A DNA stretch of 64,000 nucleotides from Acidimicrobiia bacterium (GTDB lineage: Bacteria; Actinomycetota; Acidimicrobiia; Spongiisociales; ZC4RG35). Where the stretch lies: the NCBI GenBank assembly GCA_965203555.1, contig CBDBCY010000004.1:2752001-2816000 (forward strand). Direction: 5' to 3'. The first letter of the stretch is position 1; the number at the start of each line of letters is the position of its first letter. The notes beneath the pieces were generated by a model that saw nothing but the letters and a program-made list of their open reading frames with translations, searched no databases and was not told the origin of the DNA. Made by a program: the position numbers and the translations under genes. Positions 6,411-27,176 of the stretch are shown one piece after another.

Positions 6411-9400
6411 GTGAGCGGTAACACACCGGAGTTCCACTATGGGCAAAGGGTGCGGTTGCCCGGTGAGAAGGGCATCGCGACAGTGGAGAGCCAAACACGA
6501 GCCGGAAACAAGACATTGTTGATCGTCTCCGGTCCTGATGGGGAATTGGGCAAGAGGTTTTTCAGTGCGGAGGAGTTCCGGCAGGTACGGGAAGTGACAG
6601 AGGACGGCTCGGCTTCTCCGGAGGTGGTCTTGGCGGGTCTTTGGGCGGAACGGATGATGGCTTCGGTTCGGTCTGCTACTTCCACGGTGCTGGCATCCAG
6701 CGTGTTGCGTCCCTACCCACATCAGATGTCCGCCGTGTACGGGCGAATGTTGCCCCAAGCTCGGTTGAGGTTCCTGTTGGCCGACGAACCCGGAACCGGC
6801 AAAACGATCATGTCTGGTCTTTGGCTGCGCGAAGCTCAGCGTTTGGGCATGGTGAAACGCGCATTGGTGGTGTGCCCTGCTCACTTGGTTCAAAAGTGGC
6901 AGGCCGACTTCGACCGGTTCTTCGGTGGTGGTCTTCGGGAGATCACTCTTGAGACCGTCCGACAGGGGGTTCTTTCTCTTTCGAAGCACACAACATGGGT
7001 GGTGTCGATGCACAGAGCCGCCATAAACCCGGCTGTGTTGGAGGGTATCCATCCCGACGAAGCCGGGTGGGACGCGGTCGTTGTTGACGAGGCCCATCGT
7101 ATGACTCCCACCGCGGAGACTTTCCACAATGTGGGAGAAGTGCTGTCGAAAGCTCCCCATGCGTTGTTTCTCACAGCCACGCCGCATCGAGGCAAAGAGT
7201 GGCTGTTCCAAGACCTGTTGAACCTGGTCGACCCGGAAGTGTTTCCACCCGGCGAACCGCCGCCTCGGGGAAGGCAACCTCGCAAAGTCGCGCGTCGGAA
7301 ACTGAGACCCGGACCGGTTCACTTCCTGCGACGCATGAAGGAGTCGCTGGTGGACTACGACAAACAGCGGAAGCTGTTCAAACCTCGAGAAGCCAACAAC
7401 GTCAAGGTACTCCTGAACGGTGTCGAGCAGGACTTCCATGACCGGGCGTTGACGCTAGTAGGCGACTTCTTTCCTCCCGAGGCCCGCCCGCTGGCAAGTC
7501 TCGTGTATGGCAAAAGAACAGCATCGTCGCTCCAGGCGCTGTCTAGGACCCTTCACCGCCGACACGAGAAAATGGGTATCGACCCCACCGCTCCGGTCGG
7601 CGAAAACTGGTATGACGAATCCGAGGACGACGGCGGCGAAGGGCGGATAGAGGGAGTCAAATCAACCGACGCCAAGGGAGAGAAAAAAGCAATTCTTGGG
7701 TTGTTGGGCGAGTTGGAACCCCTGCTCGGCCCCGGGTTGGCGGTGTCGAAGTGGGAACCCATGGTCAACAGCTGTTTGATTCCCCACGACGTCACTCCCG
7801 GCAGCGACAGGCAGGTGGTGGTCTTCACCGAATACGCCGACACCGCCGATTGGCTGGTCGACAAATTCGAGGATGCCGGATATACCAGCCGTCGCTACTC
7901 GGGGGCCGACGACCATCTCACCAGAGCCAAGACCCAGGCGAACTTCCGAGAAGGCGAGTTCCAAGTGTTGGTATCCACCGACGCCGGTAACGAAGGAATT
8001 GACCTCCAAACAGCCAACGTCCTAGTCAACTGGGACATTCCATGGTCGCTGGTTCGCTTGGAACAGCGACTTGGACGTATTCACCGCATCGGACAGCAAC
8101 AAAAGGCCTGGTTTTACAACCTGGTGGCATTAGGCACCCTCGAGGGTCAGGCTCACGAGAAACTGTTGGACAATTTGGTCAAAGCGGCCAACCAACTGGA
8201 TGGGAGAATCTTCGACAGTCTCAACGCTGTTATGGAACGCCTGGGCATGCCCGACCGTTTCGACATTCCGGGCGCAGCGACCGAGGACGAGATGATACGC
8301 ACATTCAACGACATGCGCACCGAAACCGAGCACCTCGAAAGCGACATCGACCTCGACCTGGCGAACACCGCCCGCAAATCCGAACTGCTACAGCGAATCG
8401 AACCCGACACGGTAGAACGGTTCCTTGACCGGCTGGACACCGCTAAGTTGGTCACCCTCGGTTCGGTGCCAATAGCCGACCACGGCTTCTACTATCTGAC
8501 CCCTGTCGGATGGGAACTTCCCCCCGGGTTCCGGACCGAAACGGGCGGAAGGGCTCTAGTGACCGCCAGAGAGAAACTACGCCAAATACTCATCGACGGG
8601 GGAAACCAAAGAGCCGAGAAAGCGACCCTTCTCACTCCCAGCCGCGCGGTATTCCACCGGTTCACACAAGCGATCCGGGAACGCACCGAAGCGGCCATGT
8701 GGCAAGGAACCGTCCTCTCCGACCCGTCCGCCCACGAGGACTACACGCTGTTTGCCTACGAAACCACCCTCCAAACCGGACACCAGAGCGGAACCGAGGA
8801 AGTGTCGTGGCTGATTGGCGTTGACCGGCACGGCATCGCCAATAGGGTGGCGTGGGAGACGCTCCCCAACCTTGCTTCCCCAACCGACTCCGCTCCCAAA
8901 CCCCTTGACCCAAAGACCGAGGCGTTAGCGGCGGAACATGCCGACCAGCTGGCCGCCGACGAAACCGAGAAACGCAAAACGAAAGCCCAAAAATGGGCAA
9001 CCCGGCTGAGGCGGGAACTGCGGGACTTGCCCAACGTAACCACCGAGCACATCCCCGACCTACAAACCCGCATCAAGCAAAGAAAACAACTGGATGCGAA
9101 CATCCGAGACAGAATCCGGGAAGCCAAACAACAGGCGGATATCAGTCACACGCAACCCCGCCGGCTGGGATGGGCACATGTGATAGCCGGTCGGCAAATA
9201 GAAAAGCATGCTGACAGCGAAACCGTGGCCATGCGCCATGTGACCCGCCTGCTCGAACAGGACGGATTCGTCGTCGACGACGTCCACACCGAAAACATAG
9301 GCTTTGACCTTCTCGCGGACCGGGGCGCCGAGCAACGCTGCGTCGAAGTAAAAGGCCGCGCCGGATCCGCATTTAAGGGCATCGAACTCACCGGCGGAGA

Positions 9401-15854: not shown

Positions 15855-16352
15855 TGGTTTGGTGTTTTGCCTGGTCAGGGGGCATGGGCGTGGATAGTGT
15901 TTCCACTACATTGGGGGGTTTGGACCCTTTTTTAGGGTTGGGTGATGGTGGTTTTGTCCCAGGTGCGGGTGTCGACTCCGATAGCGGCGAGTGCCCGGGT
16001 TTGGAGGGGGGTTCGTCGGGTGGTGAGGGTGATCTGGTGTTTGTTGGTGGTCAGGTTCACGCGGCGGATGCGGTTGAGCATCCTTAGTGCCCGGGCGGCG
16101 GTGAGGTGTTGGTGGTCGAGGTCGGGATCCCGTACATCGGCTTGGGTGAGAGCGCGGGTGATAAGCGTTTCCATGAGGGCGGCGTAAACACAGACTGCCA
16201 CATGCCCGCGGACCCGTTTTTCGGTCCAGTGTCTTACCGGTCGCAGTCGTAGGAAGTCTTTGAGCACCCGGAACCTGGTCTCAACCTTTTGCAACTGCCG
16301 GTAAGCGGCCACGATCTGGGTGGTGTCGGCCTGGGCGGTGGTGAGACTGGTG

Positions 16353-17756
16353 GGGCTTGTCAAATCGTCTGTGTGAGGGGGTGGGTTCATGGGTTTCAGT
16401 GGGTTAGGTTCATTCGGTTTGGGAAGTGGATTTCGAGTTGGTTGAGGGCTGTTTTCCAGCCGTGGGTTCCGGTGCCGAGGTTGCCTCCTCTCTTGTTGGT
16501 AATGTTGCGAGCGGCCAGGCGCAGCAGCTTCAGAGCTGATTGGTCGGTAGGGAAATGGCCTCTGGTTTTGGTGACTTTCCGCAACTGGTAGTGAACGCTT
16601 TCCACCAGGTTCGTGGTGTACACCACCCGGCGAAGCTCGGGAGGGAACCGCAGGAACGGGGTGAACTCTTCCCAGGCGCGTCGCCATATTCGTATCACTC
16701 CCGGGTAGCGGTTTCCCCATTGGTCGTCGAGTTCGTCCAACGCCTGGGCGGCTGTTTCGGCGTTCACCGCGGTGTACACGGCCCGCAGCCCTCTGACCAC
16801 CGTTTTGCGGTCTTTCCAGCTGCAAAGCCGCATAGAGGCCCGTATCAGGTGTATGACACAGGTCTGGACCAGCGCCTGAGGCCAAGTGGCCTCAATCGCG
16901 TCCGGGAGTCCTTTCAGACCGTCACAGCACACGATCAGCACGTCCTCGAGGCCTCGGTGGCGTATCTCGGTCAGCACTGACAGCCAGTACTTGGCGCCTT
17001 CGCTGCCGTCGCCCAACCACACACCCAGGACGTGTTTGCGTCCGTCCACATCGACGCCGACCACCACATACGCTGGGCGGTTGACAACAGTTCCGTCGGT
17101 TCGGACCTTGATGACCATGGCGTCTATGTACAGCAGGGGATAGCACCTGTCAAGGGGCCGGTTCTGCCATTCGGTGAGCTCCTCGACGATCCCGTCGGTG
17201 ACCTTGGACACCAGCGCCGGCGACACATCCACACCGTACATGCGCTTCAACTCCGAACGGATATCACGGGTGGACAGACCCCGGGCGTACAGGGCCACGA
17301 TGTTGGCGTTGAAGCCCTCCAAGCGCCGGGCGCCCTTCGGAACGATCTTCGGTTCGAACGTGGCGTTACGGTCACGGGGCACGTCCAGGTCCACCGCGCC
17401 GATCTCGGTAAGGACCTGTTTGGGAGTGGTCCCGTTCCGGCTGTTGCCCGTCCCATGGCCGATCGGGTCACCGTGCTCATAGCCCAGATGATCGGTCAGC
17501 TCCTCAGAAAGGGCCCGCTCCAGCACAGGCTTGGACTATCTCGGCCAACACACCATCGGGACCAAGCAGATCCACACCACCCGCCGCCGCATCAGAAACG
17601 ACCGCTTCCACGAGCTCGTCGGACACCACACCAGCAGCCACACCAGCCGGCTCCGCCATCACATGTTCAGTCATACATCATCTCCTCTCAGGCCGGGCTC
17701 TCACACCAGCCAAACAAATCAGAGAACCCACCTCACACAAACATTTATACAGGCTC
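16353..17756 (-). mobile_element. IS256-family element with 8-bp target duplication
   Basis: Imperfect IRs GGGCTTGTCAAATCGTCTGTGTGAGG / GAGCCTGTATAAATGTTTGTGTGAGG; GACTGGTG duplicated at 16345-16352 and 17757-17764. Confidence 0.93.
16396..17674 (-). pseudogene. IS256 transposase with frameshift near 17527
   Basis: NSRNG, VPRDR, CCDGLKG, YTTNLVES. The N-terminal MTEHV...LLGPDGVLAEI from ATG 17674 is out of frame with VLERAL. Confidence 0.85.
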
Positions 17757-19327
17757 GACTGGTGGTCAGCACGTAACGACCCGCCAGCAGCTTTTCATAG
17801 TCATGGTTGTCTTCGTTGTAGTGGTAAAGAAAACGCCCCGGGCCGATCTCCAAGTCGAACAACCGGGCGACCCGGCCGGTGCCGAGGATTCGTTGGGCGG
17901 CTCTCCCGATCTTGGCGGGGTCTTTGACCCCACCGGCGCGGACACGGCGTTCCAACGCCAACAACCGGGTTTCGGCTGTCTTGACGATCTGGGCGGTGCG
18001 TCGGGTGTCCCGCCGAGCACGGGCATCGGACTCGACCACCACAGTGCGGGTACCGTCCTCAAGGACGATGTCCGCCGCTCTGCTGCCGGGCTGGGATAGC
18101 TCCACCCATGCCGTGTCCCGGTCGACAGCGGCCAACGCTTGAGCAGTGATCGAGTCGCGACGCAGCCGGGTGGCCAACAGATGATCGTACCCGGCCCGGG
18201 CGACTGTTTCCAGGTTGGCGCCCGATACCAGACCCGGTCCGCTACTACACAGATTCGGCCTACCGCGAACCGCTTGGCCAGATCACCCAACACCTCGGCT
18301 AGGGTGGACGCGTCGTTGGTGTTGCCCGCGAACACATGATGGGCTATCGGGATCCCATCCTGTGTGCACAACAGACCGATCACTATCTGGGGTCGGTCCG
18401 GACGATGATCCCGCGAATACCCGAACACCCGCGACGGAAACCCTTCGGAGGATCGGGTGGAACCTTCGAAATAGGTGGACGTCAGGTCATAGCACACCAG
18501 CCGCAGGTTTAGGTTGGTCAAATCACATAACCGTCGATACAGATGCTCCTCGGTCTCCGCTTTGACATCGGCCACCGCGTCCAGGGCCCGGTAGTACTGG
18601 TCAAGCGACGGCGCCGACCACCCGGCCGGCATGACCACGTCATCGGTTGTCCATTCGGGCAGGCGACGTTTGGAACAAGGATCCACCAGCCGGTTGGCCA
18701 CCATCGCGAACACCGCATCCTCCAAAGCCCCAGCACCGCGTCTTCTGCCTATATGGGAGAAGAACCCGCCCAACTCCAGCTGATCCCACACCGCTTCTGC
18801 AGCTGCTACCCCTCCCACCGCAGGTGCCTGCTCGGCCGCTAACGCGTCGACATCGACGCGTCCTTTGTGCAGGTGGCGTTCCAACGCCGAAATGATGCGT
18901 CCCAACTGTCCGGTTTCGCGCAGAGCGGTGACTTCTCCCAGGCGAAGAAGGGTCCGATGAGCGACCTTCGACCCTTTGCGGACCGATTCCACCAACGACA
19001 GGTACTCGTACACCTTGTCGCCCCTCCGACGGCGGGAGGTCTTAACGAACACACCCCACAAAAACCCGCACCCCATCCCACCAACACAATGTCGCCACTA
19101 CAACACCCTACAGAACCAGCCCCTCACAACACAAAACCCCAGGTCAACACACCAATCACCGTCCATCCAACCCCCCGACCCGCCAAATTCCGGTCAAACC
19201 ATCCCCTGTTGTTCAAAGGACCATCCCCAAGGGCAACGACGCCGTCGGTTTTATATCCCACGCTGCTAGCCGCGAAAGGCGACCATCTGCGCAGTTGGGC
19301 GTGTCTGCAGTTCAGCTTAGGTGGGAC

Positions 19328-22300
19328 TCACTGTTGTCCCATATAGTGCCTTGTTAGGCAGTGCATGATCTGCTCACCGCGGTTGCTTAGTTTGTTGATG
19401 GCATCCGAGGAAAGGCCATAGAACCTTGTTTTGTAATTCACGACGTGACTGCGTGGAATCAGATCAGGTACAGGAATCGGTAGTCTGCTGTCGTCCATGC
19501 CCAGCATGGCTATTACGAATCCTTTCAATCCAGCAGGTGAGCCAACGGTGTCGAACAACCGGCTTCTCTCCAATGACCGCGCCCGACGGTACATCGAGTC
19601 AATGGATCTGCGCATTCTGCCTGTCCACCAATATGGACGGTCCGACCCTTCGAAGAGACCTTCATCGGCATCGCAAGCGATAATCCAATCAACTTCTTGA
19701 ACGTTTGTGCTGATTTTCGCTGACCGGCCTGGCATTAGACAGGAGATGCCCAGATTGTCGAATAACCCACCGTCGGACAGAATGACCCTCCGTCGATGCT
19801 CATTCCCGTTTTTTTCGATAAACGTTTTCGTGAAGTCCATAGCGGGGAAGAACGCTGGATGTGCAGCCGAGCAAGCAACCGCTTGTGTTACAGGAACCTT
19901 GTTGTCTTTAACGACGCCGTAACGCCAGGATCCGCTCTCAAGGTTTCCGAAGCGGAACGCTGACCCTGTTCGGAGATCACAGGCGTTGAGCACTACCGCA
20001 AGACCTTCACGAGTCACATCCGCCATCAAACGTTCACCGAACATGCCTTCAAGAGCGGATTGGAGAGCATGCGTCCGGCTTGTTCGCCGGGTCAGTGGGC
20101 CACCTGGACCGAGGAATAGGTTAGGAAGGCTTAACACCCCAGCGGTGATTGTCGTTGCCGCGCTTTGCAGGCGGTGCGATGGCCGCAACCATCGGCCGAG
20201 CACTTTCCTGAATAGACCTCGGCGCAATAACTCCATGATGTGAGCATCAAACTCGGGAAAAGTCATGTCGCTGTACGCCCAGAGGGCCGCTACCAGTGAA
20301 CCGGCTGAAACACCGGACACGACGCTCACCTGTTCCAGCAGGCCACGGTCGTGCAAGGCCCGAAGACAGCCCAGGTGGAAAGCTACAGCCCGCAGGCCGC
20401 CACCTGATAACGCAAGGCCGATACGGCCATATGTCGGAGTGGCGCTCTTAACCGGTTGTGCGATGGCTGAAGGCCACCGTTCGGTCTTGCGGTCACACAG
20501 GTAAGCGTTCCACGCTGTTCCCGTCGGACATCCACCAACAACGACCAGCAGTTGTTGGTGTTGTGGCGGTTCGTCATGGTGGACAATCGACATCATCCCT
20601 TTTAGGTCCGTAGGGCTTGCATTGGGGCTGCCATCGGGGTGAGTGTGCCACATGCCTATGGGCCGATGGGTTCCTTGGCTCAGGATGGCTAAGGCATCTG
20701 AGATCGAGCGGGATCCCTCTTTGCCACATGTGAATCCCGTTGAACTGGCCACACTGTCGGGCGGGGGACCAATGGCGGTGGTAACCGTTATGGTGCGAGT
20801 AGCGTTGTCGATTTCTCCAAAAAGCAACCCGCCCGTTTCGGCTCCAGCAGAGTGACGATGGCTCCTACGAATACTGGTCATTATTTCGTGCATGGCCGGT
20901 GGGTCGATGTTGACCGTGTAATCATGAACCGCGTCTTTCAGCCTTGTTGGACTGGAAAAGTGCAAAGACCGACTGACGGCGGTCTTCCTTTCGTTCGGAA
21001 CACCTAGTTCAACAAGGGTGGCTGTTGCCTCCGTTCCGGTGTGTAGTGCTGTGGCGGCTTCCCGAGCCAGGTAGGCCACGACTGCGGCAATGTCTGCATT
21101 TGCTCCAATGAAGGTTGGCGATGAGCATCCTGGTTCTGGCGAGAAGAGGTCGGTACGGGGGGGATCGGGCCAGAACTCTTGTGCAAAGGAATGCAGCCGA
21201 GGGTCAGCAAGGCAGGCAAGTTTGGTTCGCTGTCTTATCCAGGATGTGCCACCTCGCCCCGTGGGGGGTGCCACGGTCAAGAAGCCGCGGTTGGCCTGAT
21301 GGCCCAACAACATAGACATGAGCCACGGCTTCTTATCACGATCCCTTACAGCCAGTTCGAACCGCTTTGCCACGGTTGTGTTGGCTGTGGCATCTATCAC
21401 AATGTCGGCATCCCAAAGCGAACCATCTTGTTCACCCACCAATGGCAGGGCATCGCCATCATGCGTTTTGACCCTCTGTTCGAGTTCCGGTCGGATTCTG
21501 ACAAGTCGTTCCCGCAGAGCCTCCACCTTGGGTCGGCCTACGTCGGCGTGGTCGAATGACTGCCGAGAGAGGTGTCCTATCCGAACTCTGCCTCGATCAA
21601 TGAGGGTTAGCTCTTTGACTCCCACACGAGTTAGGTGTTCCGCAAGGTGGCTGCCTATGGCTCCACACCCCAACAAGGTGACCGTTTGACTAGCGAAGGT
21701 GGCCATCACTGACTTTGCATCCCGTCGCGTGGTTACCTCGGGCCGTGCTTCGTCTACGGGACACCATGAGAGTTTGACATCTCTGGACCAAGCTGTCATC
21801 TGGGAAGGAGGCTTACCATCTTCCGACAAAAGATCGTTGATGTTGCCCTTTAGCGGTACTGTGTTCCGCAACCGTATGACGTTCTTGGCGCTGATGTGCC
21901 ATGCTGCCAGATGTTGCCGCTCATCAACACCACGTAGGCCTCGCATGGGGGTGCCGATTATCACAAACAACGGCGTCCCCCTTTTGTTGTAATGCGCCGT
22001 AACGCGAAGCAACCACAGGAACCGTTTGAGAGGGAGGCCATGCTTGTCTAGTTCCGACAGCAAGCCGTCGAGGGAATCGGGGAAGTCGTATGGAAAGGGA
22101 AGGTGGGAAAGCACGACAGCGGCCTTGTACACATCAAGGTTCTTCCATTCCCCCGCAAGTGGGATCCATCGAGTTAGTTTCACCAGGTGATCCGCATGTC
22201 TCTCAATCGCCGCGAACCCCAACCAGGGTTCGTTATCGGGTATGGGGGTGTTGACCCTAGGAACTACGGTGGGGAGACCCTCTGACTCCAGCACTACCGG

Positions 22301-22720
22301 CGGATGCACGGCGGCCGCGATGGGAGCGAGGGTGTCTTGTGCTGCTCGCTCCAGCCATTCCACCAGTCGTTCAAGGAAGCCGTGCATGCCATCGCTGGGG
22401 TTCCACTCGATATCAGGTGCCAAGTACAGGCAAAGCAAGCCCCAGTTGACATGGCGATGCCCAGCCCACCGATCATGCGTCACGCACACCGTGGGGATCT
22501 TCCACGGAAACTCCTGGGGGATGAAGATGGCGATTTCTTCACGGGATCGGAGGGGGATGCCACGCTCAGACGATGGGAAGCGGGTATCAATCGAGACCAG
22601 AACGGGCCATCCTAGGTAACTGTTGGAAACCGCCTGGTTAAAGGAGATCTCGATGCTGTCACCCGCAGCCTCTATTCGTTGGAGCTCCTCAAGAGCCTGG
22701 CGTTGTCCCTCGCTTAACAC
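19328..22720 (-). CDS. E2 (UBC-like)-E1 (ThiF)-JAB isopeptidase-patatin phospholipase fusion
   Basis: E2: FPWKIP..HVNWGLLCLY. E1: GCGAIGS..IDRG..LSRQ, DATAN, EPGCSSPTF. JAB: ETGGLLFG..GMWHTHP..SPTD. Patatin: LSGGGLRA, GVSAG, DGG. Confidence 0.9.
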   Translation of the reverse strand: MLSEGQRQALEELQRIEAAGDSIEISFNQAVSNSYLGWPVLVSIDTRFPSSERGIPLRSREEIAIFIPQEFPWKIPTVCVTHDRWAGHRHVNWGLLCLYLAPDIEWNPSDGMHGFLERLVEWLERAAQDTLAPIAAAVHPPVVLESEGLPTVVPRVNTPIPDNEPWLGFAAIERHADHLVKLTRWIPLAGEWKNLDVYKAAVVLSHLPFPYDFPDSLDGLLSELDKHGLPLKRFLWLLRVTAHYNKRGTPLFVIIGTPMRGLRGVDERQHLAAWHISAKNVIRLRNTVPLKGNINDLLSEDGKPPSQMTAWSRDVKLSWCPVDEARPEVTTRRDAKSVMATFASQTVTLLGCGAIGSHLAEHLTRVGVKELTLIDRGRVRIGHLSRQSFDHADVGRPKVEALRERLVRIRPELEQRVKTHDGDALPLVGEQDGSLWDADIVIDATANTTVAKRFELAVRDRDKKPWLMSMLLGHQANRGFLTVAPPTGRGGTSWIRQRTKLACLADPRLHSFAQEFWPDPPRTDLFSPEPGCSSPTFIGANADIAAVVAYLAREAATALHTGTEATATLVELGVPNERKTAVSRSLHFSSPTRLKDAVHDYTVNIDPPAMHEIMTSIRRSHRHSAGAETGGLLFGEIDNATRTITVTTAIGPPPDSVASSTGFTCGKEGSRSISDALAILSQGTHRPIGMWHTHPDGSPNASPTDLKGMMSIVHHDEPPQHQQLLVVVGGCPTGTAWNAYLCDRKTERWPSAIAQPVKSATPTYGRIGLALSGGGLRAVAFHLGCLRALHDRGLLEQVSVVSGVSAGSLVAALWAYSDMTFPEFDAHIMELLRRGLFRKVLGRWLRPSHRLQSAATTITAGVLSLPNLFLGPGGPLTRRTSRTHALQSALEGMFGERLMADVTREGLAVVLNACDLRTGSAFRFGNLESGSWRYGVVKDNKVPVTQAVACSAAHPAFFPAMDFTKTFIEKNGNEHRRRVILSDGGLFDNLGISCLMPGRSAKISTNVQEVDWIIACDADEGLFEGSDRPYWWTGRMRRSIDSMYRRARSLERSRLFDTVGSPAGLKGFVIAMLGMDDSRLPIPVPDLIPRSHVVNYKTRFYGLSSDAINKLSNRGEQIMHCLTRHYMGQQ

Positions 22721-22751
22721 CTTCCAAAACCAACGGGATTAACCACTGGTC

Positions 22752-23861
22752 TCAGACTGCCCCTGCTCTTTTCAACCTGCTCTTTTGCTCCCGACCCCCT
22801 GGTTCAGTGCCTAGGAACGAAACGCCCGTGTGGTCCACTTCGAAAATGATGGGCGTGGGGTTCGCCACGTCTGGATGTTCACCCGTGCATAGGAACGTTT
22901 CGCATCTTTCCTGGTATCGGTTCTTTGCTTTGGCATGCGGGGGGTTGTCGCCGTCGCTGTTCTTGCCTGGTATCTGCTCCGAACTTGACACAGCCCAGCC
23001 AAGGTCGGCCTTCGCCTCCTCTAGCAGATCCAAAACGTCTCTACGCAGAAGATCTCGACCGTTGACTCGCTCATACATCACTGTTTTCGAACAGTGATGT
23101 GGCGCAAGCAAGACATCCCACTTCTTGTCGTTGACATCCGCAGTTGCTTCAAGGAGCCTCTTGACCGGTTCATAATCCAGATCGCCCAGCAACAGAGCCC
23201 GTCCCTCCCCAGCTCCGCACTTCACCGTGACCTGCAAACCTATGCTCGTCCGGTTCCGCTTGTCGCTTTCCATATCGTCTTTGAAGGGAGAGTGGACAAA
23301 GAGCCGCAGGTCTTTCGCCAGGAACCGCCCATCCACCTTCGTCACTTCGGAACCTGGTGCAGATACCACCGCGCTATCGAGGTGTGCAAAGTCGCCCTCC
23401 AACGATTCGTGGTACCCGACCACTCGAAACCTGTTACCACTTAATGGGTCAATACCCGTCCGGTACTTCTCCAAGCGCCGCATGGCCTCATCCCGCAACG
23501 CCTTCGCATCGTCAGCCAATTGGTCAGAATCTTCCGCGTCGATATCGGCAACCAACCGCGGGGTGAACCACAGTTCCCCAATCTCAACCCTTTCCACAAG
23601 ATCCTGGAATCCACTACAGTGATCCAAGTCATGATGTGTCGCTACATACGCGGCGAGATACGGACGGCCCATCCTCCGAGGAAGCAACTCGACAAGTTCG
23701 TCAACCACCGGATACCGAGGGTCATCGGAACTGTCGGCGGCCTTGACGTGGTTGATGTCAACCTGGAGTATGACATCCTCAGAAACAAGAATGGTTGTGC
23801 TGTCCCCAGTGCCCACGGGCCAAAAGACGAAACCCTTCGTTGGCAGATCACTTCTAAGCAT
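22752..23861 (-). CDS. ComEC-like metallo-beta-lactamase-fold hydrolase; C-terminus probably frameshifted (restored stop 22714)
   Basis: PVGTGDS, THHDLDHCSG, LLLGD, APHHCS. GAGGAGGAGG RBS precedes ATG 23861. Confidence 0.88.
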   Translation of the reverse strand: MLRSDLPTKGFVFWPVGTGDSTTILVSEDVILQVDINHVKAADSSDDPRYPVVDELVELLPRRMGRPYLAAYVATHHDLDHCSGFQDLVERVEIGELWFTPRLVADIDAEDSDQLADDAKALRDEAMRRLEKYRTGIDPLSGNRFRVVGYHESLEGDFAHLDSAVVSAPGSEVTKVDGRFLAKDLRLFVHSPFKDDMESDKRNRTSIGLQVTVKCGAGEGRALLLGDLDYEPVKRLLEATADVNDKKWDVLLAPHHCSKTVMYERVNGRDLLRRDVLDLLEEAKADLGWAVSSSEQIPGKNSDGDNPPHAKAKNRYQERCETFLCTGEHPDVANPTPIIFEVDHTGVSFLGTEPGGREQKSRLKRAGAV

Positions 23862-24101
23862 TAATGTCCTCCTCCTCTTACCGAGATGATGGTTCCCACA
23901 GACCGAGAACCGAAGTGCCAATAGGACTCTACAACGAAAGATGCCTGACAGGGGGCATTTATTCTCTGAGGTGCTCCTGCTGCTACCTGGTCTTGGCATC
24001 AGTGACCCGGAGTGCCGGTCAACTAGGAGGCGGTGCCCACGGCAACCCCATATTCCAGTCAATGAGCTCTTGCAGGGCCCCTAACTTCCTAACAGTGCTT
24101 C

Positions 24102-24192
24102 AATCGTGGTGTCCCCCCTGTGTTGATCGTGGTGTCCTCCGCAAAACCCCCCGCTTAGGCGCAGGTCAGGGGTGGTGGCAAACACGCCACCA
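24102..24192 (+). repeat. ~90-bp dispersed element, copy 2
   Basis: AATCGTGGTGTCC..GATCGTGGTGTCC, GCAGGTCAGGGG, TGGTGGC/GCCACCA hairpin. Confidence 0.8.
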
Positions 24193-24384
24193 AAGATATG
24201 TTGGCGATTTAGCCGGCCCGGCGAAGTTCTGGGGGGAACCTCAAGAAAGGAGATGAACTCTTTCCTTAGCCCGTCGCCGGATGCGTGTCACAGTGGGGGT
24301 TGGTCGGGTGGCATTTCCGTGTCGACTGGCGTCGGCGGGCTGCCTTATTGTTGGCAGTGTTCGTAGCGGCTGTATTCCCTGGGA

Positions 24385-24805
24385 CCCGAATGTGGCGGGT
24401 TGGTGTGTTGACCTGGGGTTTTGTGTTGTGAGGGGCTGGTTCCGTAGGGATTTGTAGTGGCGACAATGAGTTGGCGGAATGGGGTTCAGGCTGCTGGTGG
24501 GGTATGTTCGTTAAGACAACCCGCCGTCGAAGGGGCGACAAGGTGTACGAGTACCTGTTGTTGGTGGAAATGGGTACGCAAAGGAACAAAAAACCGGTCA
24601 CCGGACCCTGTTACGCCTGGGAAAAGGTCACCGCTCTGCGCGAAACCGGACAACTGGGACGCATCATCGCGGCGTTGGAACGCCACCTGCACAAAGAACG
24701 CGTCGACATCGACGCGTTGGCGGCCGAACAGGCACCGCCAGCGGGAGGGGCAGCAGCCACAGCAGCGGGGTGGGACCAACTGGGTCTCGGTGGGTTCTTC
24801 TCCGA
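24385..24805 (+). mobile_element. IS1634 5' remnant
   Basis: IR variant CCCGAATGTGGCGGGT and degenerate MFVKTTRRRRGDKVYEYL...WDQLGLGGFFS, cut off by copy B. Confidence 0.85.
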
Positions 24806-26740
24806 CCGGAATTTGGCGGGTGGTTTGGTGTTTTACCAGGTCAGGGGGCATGCGCGTGGATAGTGTTTCCACTACATTCGGTGATTTGGACCCTTTTAGG
24901 GTTGGGTGATGGTGGCTTTGTCCCAGGTGCGGGTGTCGACTCCGATGGCGGCGAGGGTCCGGGCTTGGAGGGGGGTGCGTCGGGTGGTGAGCGTGATCCG
25001 GTGCTTGTTGCTGGTCAGTGTCACGCGGCGGATGCGGTTGAGCATTCTCAGTGCCCGCGCGGCGGTGAGGTGTTGGTGGTCGAGGTCAGGATCTCGGATG
25101 TCGGCTGCGGTGAGAGCGCGGGTGATGAGCGTTTCCAACAGGGCGGCGTAGACGCAGACGGCTACGTGTCCGCGGACTCGCTGTTCGGTCCAGTGTCGTA
25201 TTGGTCGTAGTCGCAGGAAGTCTTTGAGCACCCGAAAGCGGGTCTCGACCTTTTGCAATTGGCGGTAGGCGGCCACGACTTCGGTGGTGTCGGCTTGCGA
25301 GCGGGTGAGCCTGGTGGTCAGCACGTAGCGACCCGCCAGCAGCTTCTCATAGGCCTGAGCCTCTTCGTTGTAGTGGTAGACGAAGCGACATGGGCCGATC
25401 TCCAGATCGAACAACCGCCCCACCCGACCTGTGTTGAGGATTCGTTGGGCGGCTCTTCCGATCTTGGCGGGGTCTTTCACCCGGCCCGAGCGGACGCGGT
25501 GTTCCAACGCCAACAACCGGGTTTCAGCTGTGGTGATGATCTCGGCGGTGCGTCGCGTGTCCCGACCAGCCCGAGCGTCGGACTCGACCACCACCGCGCG
25601 GGTCCCGTCCTCCAGGGTGACATCTGTGGCTCTGCTGCCGGGTTGGGGCAACTCCACCCATACCGTGTTCTCGTCTACAGCGGCCAACGCTTCGGCGGTG
25701 AGCGGGTCGCGGCGTAGTCTGGTGGCCAACAGATGATCGAACCCGGCTTGGGTGACTGTTTCCAGGTTGGAAGCTGACATGAGACCCCGGTCGGTGACCA
25801 CGCAGATCCTGCCCACCGCGAACCGCTTGGCCAGGTCATCCAACACGTCCGTTAGGGTGGAGGCGTCGTTGGTGTTCCCCGCGAAAACGTGATGGGCTAT
25901 AGGGATCCCGTCCGTGGTGTACAACAGACCGATCACGATCTGGGATCGATCCGAGCGATGATCCCGCGAGTACCCGAACATTCGCGACGGAAACGCGTCG
26001 GAGGGTCGGGTGGAACCTTCGAAATAGGTGGACGTCAGGTCATAGCACACCAGCCGCAGGTTTAGGTTGGTCAAATCGCACAACCGTCGATACAGATGCT
26101 CCTCGGTCTCCGCTTTGACATCGGCCACCGCGTCCAGGGCACGGTAATACTGGTCAAGCGACGGCGCCGACCACCAGGGCGGCATGACCACGCCATCGGT
26201 TGTCCATTCGGGCAGGCGACGTTCGGAACAGGGATCCATCAGCTGGTTGGCCACCATCGCGAACACGGCATGCTCCAAAGCCTCGGCGCCTATACCAGCA
26301 AAGAACTCGCCCAACCCCAGCTGGTCCCACACCGCCGCTGCGGCTGCTACGCCGCCCACTGCCGGCGCCTGCTCGGCCGCTAACGCGTCGATATCGACGC
26401 GTTCTTTGTGCAGGTGGCGTTCCAACGCTGCGATGATGCGTCCCAGTTGCCCGGTTTCTCGCAGAGCGGTGACTTCTCCCAGGCGTAAAAGGGTCCGGTG
26501 ACCGACTTTTGTTCCTTTGCGTACCGATTCCACCAGCGACAGATACTCGTATACCTTGTCGCCCCTTCGACGGCGGGTGGTCTTTACGAACATATCCCAC
26601 AATGCTAGCAGACCGCACCTTGTCCCACCAACACAATGTCGCCACTACAACACCTTGCAGAACCTGCCGCTCACAACACAAAACCTCAGGTCAACACACC
26701 AATCACCGTCCACCAAACCCCCTGACCCGCCAAATTCCGG
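24806..26740 (-). mobile_element. IS1634-family copy B (complete ends, no matching TSD)
   Basis: CCGGAATTTGGCGGGT at both ends; flanks TCCGA and CCAGA differ. Confidence 0.92.
24896..26593 (-). CDS. IS1634 transposase
   Basis: Intact ORF with YDLTSTYFEG, VTDRG, VETRFRVLK and LRPIRHW. Confidence 0.93.
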   Translation of the reverse strand: MFVKTTRRRRGDKVYEYLSLVESVRKGTKVGHRTLLRLGEVTALRETGQLGRIIAALERHLHKERVDIDALAAEQAPAVGGVAAAAAVWDQLGLGEFFAGIGAEALEHAVFAMVANQLMDPCSERRLPEWTTDGVVMPPWWSAPSLDQYYRALDAVADVKAETEEHLYRRLCDLTNLNLRLVCYDLTSTYFEGSTRPSDAFPSRMFGYSRDHRSDRSQIVIGLLYTTDGIPIAHHVFAGNTNDASTLTDVLDDLAKRFAVGRICVVTDRGLMSASNLETVTQAGFDHLLATRLRRDPLTAEALAAVDENTVWVELPQPGSRATDVTLEDGTRAVVVESDARAGRDTRRTAEIITTAETRLLALEHRVRSGRVKDPAKIGRAAQRILNTGRVGRLFDLEIGPCRFVYHYNEEAQAYEKLLAGRYVLTTRLTRSQADTTEVVAAYRQLQKVETRFRVLKDFLRLRPIRHWTEQRVRGHVAVCVYAALLETLITRALTAADIRDPDLDHQHLTAARALRMLNRIRRVTLTSNKHRITLTTRRTPLQARTLAAIGVDTRTWDKATITQP

Positions 26741-27176
26741 CCAGAGTCGATCACCAAATGAGAAGCCCTCATCTGATGGGCGTATGCCTGGGGGCACCGC
26801 GCTCGACGATGTACCGGGTGCTCTTTCCGCAGGGGGCCTGTCCCGCCTTTCCGCCCTGGACGGTACCACCAGTGTCCCCATCCGCTATGGCCTTGCCTAT
26901 CGCCTGAGCGAACAGTCATCGGTTGCAATCAGCATCGGTCGCGTCCCAAGGGGTTTCCCGAGTGATGTGTACATCAAGGGCCTCGACCTACTGGACTTTC
27001 CCAACATCTGAGTCTGAGTGATATGAACCGAATCAGCGTCATCCAAGGTGACTCCCACGAGGACACGGGCCGGTGTCGAAATGCAGCCAGGAGTCACTAA
27101 CCTGTCTATCCTGACCACTATCAAGCGCGACCGATTTGGTCAAGGGGTATTGAGAGCAGTTCCCTTAAGGACGGAT

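Follow-up and report, generated by a model that had tools for sequence, protein, structure and literature searches.

A one-base frameshift puts the glycine-ended tail of the MBL-fold enzyme out of frame in a patatin-fused 6A-MBL locus of an Acidimicrobiia bacterium

The MBL gene and its frameshift

The stretch of DNA analysed here (the window) comprises 64,000 nucleotides from an Acidimicrobiia bacterium (assembly GCA_965203555.1, contig CBDBCY010000004.1, positions 2,752,001 to 2,816,000). On its minus strand lie the two genes of a 6A-MBL anti-phage system: one for an enzyme with a metallo-beta-lactamase (MBL) fold, and one for a ligase in which E2, E1, JAB and patatin domains are fused. As assembled, the MBL gene ends early, and the frame that encodes the C-terminal tail typical of its family lies one base away, behind a run of five G residues (G5). 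The features of this gene are as follows.

22752..23861, minus strand: 6A-MBL enzyme gene, 369 amino acids from the ATG at 23861 (from translation, the NF058524 profile, alignment with the homologue P0003, and fold)
22795..22799, minus strand: G5 run of the coding strand (C5 on the plus strand), site of the one-base difference (from the sequence and public contigs)
22752..22754, minus strand: premature TGA of the assembled MBL frame, 31 nt before the ligase start codon
22714..22794, minus strand: hidden tail of 26 codons, SGAKEQVEKSRGSLRPVVNPVGFGRC, and TAA (from the alternative frame, the match to P0003 and the family motif)

The minus-strand open reading frame (ORF) of the MBL gene terminates as ...EPGGREQKSRLKRAGAV*, and its C-terminal stretch reads ...FLGTEPGGREQKSRLKRAGAV. 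The assembled frame ends in ...LGTEPGGREQKSRLKRAGAV, with the TGA at 22754-22752; its last 13 residues (REQKSRLKRAGAV) are out-of-frame sequence that follows a complete MBL fold. From 22803 onward the frame one base back is open; it encodes TRGSGAKEQVEKSRGSLRPVVNPVGFGRC and closes with a TAA at 22716-22714, which overlaps the GTG start codon of the ligase gene (22720-22718). The initial annotation had described the locus in these terms, with an MBL ending at 22752, a VGFG-RC tail one base out of frame behind the G5 run, and a hidden-frame TAA (22714-22716) overlapping the GTG of the E2-E1-JAB-patatin gene. Translation confirms this description, and all of its coordinates are correct.

In a protein search with the 369-residue MBL, 1419 of the 8000 candidates that were scored reached E <= 0.001; the listing comprises the best 120 of them. 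The nearest homologue among the matches listed is P0003, a protein of 383 amino acids that is 88% identical to the assembled MBL gene body and has EPPGGSGAKEQIEKSRGSLRPVVNPVGFGRC as its C-terminus. Of the 27 hidden residues, 26 agree with those at the C-terminus of P0003 (BLASTP E 6e-17), which puts the match, as a sequence comparison, far beyond chance. The ATG at 23861 is a likelier start of the gene than the TTG at 24062, a correction of the gene model made because homologues align from that Met. In the alignment, the body of the protein retains the invariant H-x-D-x-D-H motif and the later His/Asp positions.

The ligase-patatin gene and the identity of the system

The second gene lies directly downstream of the MBL gene and has the following parts.

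19328..22720, minus strand: E2-E1-JAB-patatin fusion gene, 1130 amino acids, GTG start at 22720 (Pfam, PADLOC, NCBIfam)
22274-22612, minus strand: E2 domain (Prok-E2_A), residues 37-149 (Pfam)
21290-21697, minus strand: E1/ThiF domain, residues 342-477 (Pfam)
20507-20884, minus strand: Prok-JAB domain, residues 613-738 (Pfam)
19745-20416, minus strand: patatin domain, residues 769-992 (Pfam)

Both proteins exceed the equivalog cut-offs of NCBIfam. Profile NF058524 ('anti-phage 6A-MBL system MBL-fold protein', '6A-MBL_enzyme') matches the MBL over residues 13-346 with 255.3 bits against a cut-off of 220. Profile NF058523 ('6A-MBL system cap2_3 protein', '6A-MBL_cap2_3') matches the ligase with 356 bits against a cut-off of 320, in a match that ends at residue 724. 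The ligase is also matched by the E1-E2 model of PADLOC (5.5e-84) and by its JAB model, and a Pfam search of the MBL protein gave no match. The two genes are adjacent and on the same strand, with E2, E1 and JAB in the expected order on one polypeptide. By these matches, the locus is a two-gene 6A-MBL anti-phage system of a patatin-fused subtype. It shares with 6A-MBL an MBL-fold protein beside a single E2-E1-JAB polypeptide, and differs in the C-terminal patatin fusion of the ligase and in having the putative conjugation tail of the MBL out of frame. The system itself is already known, and the broken tail is what is particular here.

Table 1 of Iyer, Burroughs and Aravind 2006 (PMC1779556) describes the operon type 6a, which is 6A-MBL. 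In later work, a review (PMC13276650) and a preprint (10.1101/2025.09.30.679545), 6A-MBL figures as a validated Pseudomonas aeruginosa defence, reportedly named and tested by van den Berg et al. 2024. According to the discussion section of Ye et al. (PMC11601596), Type II CBASS, Pycsar and MBL pathways conjugate their own enzymes via fused ATG7-like E2-E1 proteins, to targets given as unknown, and the JAB peptidases of such pathways cut conjugates and/or pre-proteins. The openly readable literature (articles, with supplements outside the search) mentions 6A-MBL and MBL pathways only briefly, and describes neither the tail motif nor the patatin fusion.

The ligase keeps every invariant column of a 33-sequence alignment. 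Among the kept residues are C97, G351/G353/G356 (GxGxxG) and C532 of the E2 and E1 parts, E628, H692, H694, S702 and D705 of JAB, and G774-G775, R777, S805 and D983 of patatin, with roles assigned by analogy with Cap2/Cap3. On this comparison, the ligase-patatin gene looks intact.

Among species-representative genomes, a scan turned up 240 relatives, of which the 80 best loci were retained; they come from Acidimicrobiia, Chloroflexota, Acidobacteriota, Proteobacteria, Planctomycetota and other groups. Of these 80 loci, 46 encode E2, E1, JAB and patatin in one uninterrupted fusion of 1120-1183 amino acids, a range that includes the 1130 amino acids of the window's protein. Thirteen further loci have a same-strand patatin ORF downstream, with E <= 1e-88 in 10 cases. 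Within the set distance limit, 78 of the 80 MBL genes are followed by an E2-E1 ORF. Of the other two, L075 is on a contig that stops before any E2-E1 could appear, and L065 has its nearest E2-E1 pieces at a downstream distance of at least about 1.7 kb.

Some of these loci show other peculiarities of the ligase gene. L048 (2294-5791) encodes an E2-E1-JAB protein of 1166 amino acids whose C-terminal ~400 residues have no patatin match and may carry a different fused effector. At L029, L044, L063, L065 and L068, the ligase gene is spread over 2-5 ORFs, interrupted or truncated. L013 (same DNA as L002; genome G007, 47% identity) is the only same-genus relative with a clear homologue, and at 7149-7300 it has a frameshift ~30 codons into its E2-E1-JAB-patatin gene. 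This frameshift is not at a homopolymer: the N-terminus VTPGQEQALDDLRAVE... meets a stop, and the alignment resumes in another frame. Together with the window copy, L013 would bring the broken copies of the system in this lineage to two. With the five loci just named, the ligase gene is damaged at about 6 of the 80 representative loci, and the MBL tail is damaged at none of those.

The glycine-ended tail in the family

Nearly all homologues share a tail of the kind that is hidden in the window. The motif x[FY]G occurs within the last 12 residues of 119 of the 120 listed proteins (GFG in 97, GYG in 14, and eight other forms), and the sole exception has VGHG followed by 21 residues. In the 119 motif-bearing proteins, the glycine is followed by extensions that are highly variable in sequence and have 0 residues in 11 proteins, 1 in 3, 2 in 56, 3 in 34, 4 in 12, 5 in 2 and 8 in 1. 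The scan of genomes gave the same picture, with an MBL ending in [FY]G plus 0-5 residues at 79 of the best 80 loci and in VGHG at L021; a truncation like that of the window was seen at none of these best 80 of 240 loci. Every row of a 30-sequence alignment has the terminal Gly (G381 of P0003), and another Gly, 12 residues before it and inside an A-R-G motif, is nearly invariant. The window copy departs from this trait, as its assembled ORF ends in RAGAV and carries the x-G-[FY]-G motif one base out of frame. The initial annotation had proposed a comparison of homologous C-termini, in which a lack of the GFG-like end and a likeness to RAGAV would speak against a hidden tail. This comparison has now been made, and the objection fails because the homologues share the GFG-like end with such regularity; no resemblance to RAGAV was found.

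By family likeness, the hidden segment would consist of a short docking helix (a predicted element), a disordered stretch, the VGFG motif and a 2-residue extension. Direct comparison with close relatives is limited. Neither the truncated nor the G6 form of the window's own MBL is among the 120 listed matches (the best being P0003), which is uninformative either way, and a homologue occurs in only 2 of 40 related genomes (47% and 34% identity), so that there is no close orthologue DNA to compare at the G run.

The tail is a family trait that was measured here, and it lies outside the curated profile. NF058524 has 346 positions and scores the truncated and intact MBL alike (255 vs 259 bits). Because it ends at residue 346, annotation pipelines will call a truncated MBL a full member. 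Counts of 'functional' 6A-MBL systems should include a check of the tail.

The overlap of the MBL tail with the ligase start is equally regular. At 71 of 73 usable loci, the ligase start codon begins -4 to +12 nt from where the terminal Gly codon ends; 7 of the 80 loci were dropped from this count (4 with the ligase N-terminus unaligned, 2 without a downstream E2-E1, and 1 without a start codon). Overlap of stop and start with the E2-E1-JAB gene is a family trait, and the spacing identifies the post-Gly extension as the stretch where the two genes overlap. In the hidden frame of the window, the distance from terminal Gly codon to ligase start is 3 nt; as assembled, there are 31 nt between the MBL stop and the GTG. 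Six codons ahead of the GTG there is an in-frame stop, and no earlier start codon follows that stop. Translational coupling, which the initial annotation had expected, is consistent with this overlap.

Predicted fold and complex

An AlphaFold2 model of P0003, built from a 30-row alignment, has a mean predicted local distance difference test score (pLDDT) of 86.2 and a predicted TM-score (pTM) of 0.86. It shows a globular fold to about residue 349, a short helix at 360-368 and then a low-confidence tail, with block mean pLDDT values of 38-56 from residue 351. In the model, the MBL tail is disordered beyond the confident fold. The fold is closest to the ComEC MBL domain 9ic4 (E 2.4e-11, TMt 0.72) and to the phosphorylcholine esterase Pce, then to beta-CASP RNases; from these neighbours, a phosphodiesterase- or nuclease-type MBL is predicted.

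A complex was modelled from residues 1-590 of the window's E2-E1 protein (33-row alignment) and P0003. Its interface score ipSAE is 0.75 (runs 0.74-0.77) vs 0.00 for the best of 3 controls. Of 80 solved complexes 58 reach this mark, and of 110 mismatched pairs 2 do; the runs share at least 89% of contacts, and the pLDDT of the partners is at least 87. On the MBL side, the predicted contacts are made by residues 272, 299-300, 310, 314, 317-323, 354, 356-368 and 372-383, and on the ligase side by residues 12-132 (the E2 domain), among them those around the invariant Cys97 (95-101). The MBL tail and the preceding helix supply most of them. The predicted complex supports binding between MBL and ligase. 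The reading frame shifts behind the equivalent of residue 357, so that the assembled MBL would lack nearly the whole predicted interface.

The two alleles in public contigs

Two runs of one study, X1 and X2, contain the stretch. In X1, a 5299-nt contig of depth 4.2 is identical to the window over 19131-24429 and carries G5. In X2, a 466-nt contig of depth 8.4 covers 22566-23030 with 0 substitutions and one extra C behind 22794, that is, G6. Over 4470 nt of the locus, seven X2 pieces differ from the window by one substitution and the G-run indel; given this near-identity, the intact allele exists in essentially the same element. The contigs of neither X1 nor X2 hold G5 and G6 together, and a search of public metagenome contigs for a pattern fitting both alleles returned 0 stretches.

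The source genome comprises 3.42 Mb in 4 contigs. Its general quality at homopolymers was judged by scoring every genomic G/C run of at least 5 for a change of best coding frame across the run. This signature is found at 264 of 5278 coding G/C runs of at least 5 (5.0%) vs 4.3-5.0% at three control pentamers. The assembly shows no excess of homopolymer frameshifts by this test, which is coarse and could miss a few dozen; the MBL site itself escapes it, because the hidden tail is too short. For X1, a k-mer assembly that gives G5 with 0 differences over 5.3 kb requires several concordant accurate reads, even if X1 is the source sample. All in all, G5 is likely to be a real allele.

A possible role for the tail

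The tail of the MBL-fold enzyme, with its short predicted helix, disordered stretch, x-G-[FY]-G with invariant Gly and 0-5 variable residues, may serve for conjugation. By analogy with cGAS in Type II CBASS (cyclic oligonucleotide-based antiphage signalling system), E1 would adenylate the terminal Gly of the MBL; the Gly would then pass via Cys532 to Cys97 of E2, for ligation of the MBL to a target. Reversal of this conjugation would fall to JAB, which would presumably also trim the extension where there is one (RC here). Trimming cannot be the sole role of JAB, and deconjugation is likely to be its main one, since 11 of the 120 listed homologues end exactly at Gly and their systems keep JAB.

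Loss of one G from a G6 run would leave the MBL fold to be made as before, but 13 unrelated residues would take the place of the last 26, and with them of the helix, tail and Gly. As the G5 stop falls short of the ligase start and the overlap is lost, translation of the ligase-patatin gene would probably be uncoupled and lowered. The MBL from a G5 gene would presumably be neither docked nor conjugated, which would leave the system off or stuck in an unprimed state.

Two known systems offer parallels. Patatin is a usual effector of CBASS. As in Type II CBASS (Cap2, Cap3 and the CD-NTase C-terminus), the module appears to combine an ATG7-like fused E2-E1, a disordered Gly-ended tail on an enzyme of its own operon, and reversal by JAB. 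In contrast to Type II CBASS, there is no CD-NTase here, the substrate would be a ComEC-like MBL hydrolase, JAB and patatin are on the ligase's own chain, and no second messenger is known for 6A-MBL. Membership in Type II CBASS was considered and rejected, as the module (19197-24399) has two genes only, the first of which encodes an MBL by NCBIfam and by fold, not a CD-NTase. In the preprint of Ledvina et al. (10.1101/2022.03.31.486616), mutation of the terminal glycine of the Type II CBASS enzyme abolished protection, and the Cap2-type E1 is called closest to ATG7.

The second parallel is with the ubiquitin-like proteins of autophagy. Proteins of the Atg8/LC3 family carry an aromatic residue and Gly near the C-terminus, and the few residues beyond are cut off by the protease Atg4 before the ATG7 E1 acts. 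Similarly, the MBL tail ends in G-[FY]-G plus 0-5 residues, and the E1 is of the family nearest to ATG7. The MBL, by contrast, lacks a ubiquitin fold, and the peptidase is the JAB metalloprotease, not the Atg4 cysteine protease. The parallel is possibly meaningful, and is offered as a lead only.

Origin and consequences of the frameshift

The best explanation of these observations, which we hold to be fairly probable, is a real and very recent one-base deletion that removed the conjugation tail of a known 6A-MBL system. As the rest of the system shows no decay, the deletion must be very recent if it is real. The initial annotation had left a choice between sequencing error, recent inactivation and a slippage switch; the presence of both alleles in public data favours a recent change, an evolved switch found no support, and error is rather unlikely. 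If it were a sequencing or assembly artefact, the organism would have G6, with the tail in frame and the system intact. A change of homopolymer length by one base is the commonest long-read error, and an assembly of 3.4 Mb in 4 contigs looks like a long-read one; in addition, the hidden tail is undecayed (26 of 27 residues identical), and X2, the only other run with the locus, carries G6. Nevertheless, the separate k-mer assembly of X1 yields G5 in its 5299-nt contig, with no differences from the window, five bases make a short run, and G/C runs of at least 5 show no genome-wide excess of frame switches. Several points weigh against a real, inactivating deletion. The evidence for both alleles consists of assembled contigs, not reads. 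X1 has a depth of only 4.2 and, like X2, an unrecorded platform; it is possibly the genome's source sample and so no independent support for G5, and both its low depth and this possible origin favour an artefact. A homopolymer error or a mixed G5/G6 population in X1 is possible, as contigs drop rare variants. As to function, the truncated MBL retains the whole catalytic fold and could keep some activity, the complex (a model only) seats the tail on the E2 domain, not on the E1 adenylation site, and the readable texts, which do not cover van den Berg et al. 2024, contain no test of the tail's role in 6A-MBL.

An evolved on/off switch, either as a G5/G6 contingency tract (phase variation) or as -1 slippage that gives some full-length protein, is improbable. 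Both lengths do occur in near-identical DNA of one study, a costly abortive-infection system would profit from on/off control, and the sequence is such that a P-site -1 slip on the GGU closing the G run would give exactly the G6 protein. The run, however, is only 5-6 bases long, and contigs with both alleles together were found in neither run. Phase-variable contingency loci usually have tracts of at least 7 that recur in relatives, and none above 7 was found in 80 relatives. Instead, the last 123 nt of 80 MBL genes contain 28 runs of 5-7 at scattered positions (2.8/kb vs 1.85/kb in gene bodies); the run is unconserved in relatives, and the residues at the site vary among homologues (PGG, PDG, PAG and others). 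A programmed -1 frameshift is likewise improbable, as the zero frame reads CCA GGG GGT, whose heptamer A GGG GGT departs from the canonical X XXY YYZ (a downstream stimulator structure was not searched for). Nothing points to selection for low-level -1 slippage at GGU. A population-level form of the switch is quite improbable: here the tail and helix would be the ligase's only handle, most cells of one host population would be tail-less and unprimed, and the G5/G6 run would control a suicidal defence. If true, rare DNA or ribosomal slippage would restore the VGFG tail and give a sponge symbiont a bet-hedged mix of armed and disarmed cells. It is very improbable that the mutation is real but neutral, with MBL and patatin acting without conjugation and the loss of the tail removing a regulatory layer only. 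This account would agree with the preserved MBL fold, with all its invariant residues, and with the intact ligase-patatin gene. On the other hand, the near-universal motif (119 of 120 listed homologues) and its invariant terminal Gly argue for strong selection, the lost segment holds most of the predicted ligase contacts, and the glycine mutation reported by Ledvina et al. abolished protection in the CBASS analogue (10.1101/2022.03.31.486616).

In itself, the recent deletion is an ordinary inactivation, or an error, in a known system. The natural G5 and G6 alleles, which within the gene pair differ by this one base only, are a ready-made control pair for asking whether 6A-MBL can work without its MBL tail being conjugated. 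The invariant Gly in x-G-[FY]-G, the 0-5-residue overlap extension and the predicted E2 docking helix are family measurements that frame such biochemistry.

Mobile-element setting

Around the module lie the following copies and fragments of insertion sequences (IS).

24821..26743, minus strand: full IS copy to the right of the module, with an ORF (24896-26602) for a DDE_Tnp_1 transposase of 568 amino acids (Pfam; repeats D1-D6)
24400..24803, strand not assigned: inverted fragment of the same IS end, abutting the module (inverted repeats I1-I7; opposite-strand joint 19055/24500 in contigs)
15855..19196, minus strand: second copy of the same IS, to the left of the module, split by a Mutator-family IS (repeats D1-D6)
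16396-17526: Mutator-family transposase ORF inside the left IS copy (Pfam Transposase_mut, 7.4e-111)

The two-gene module at 19197-24399 is bracketed by copies of one DDE_Tnp_1 IS, and in this arrangement it resembles a composite transposon. At the IS repeat, contig depth climbs to 111-234.

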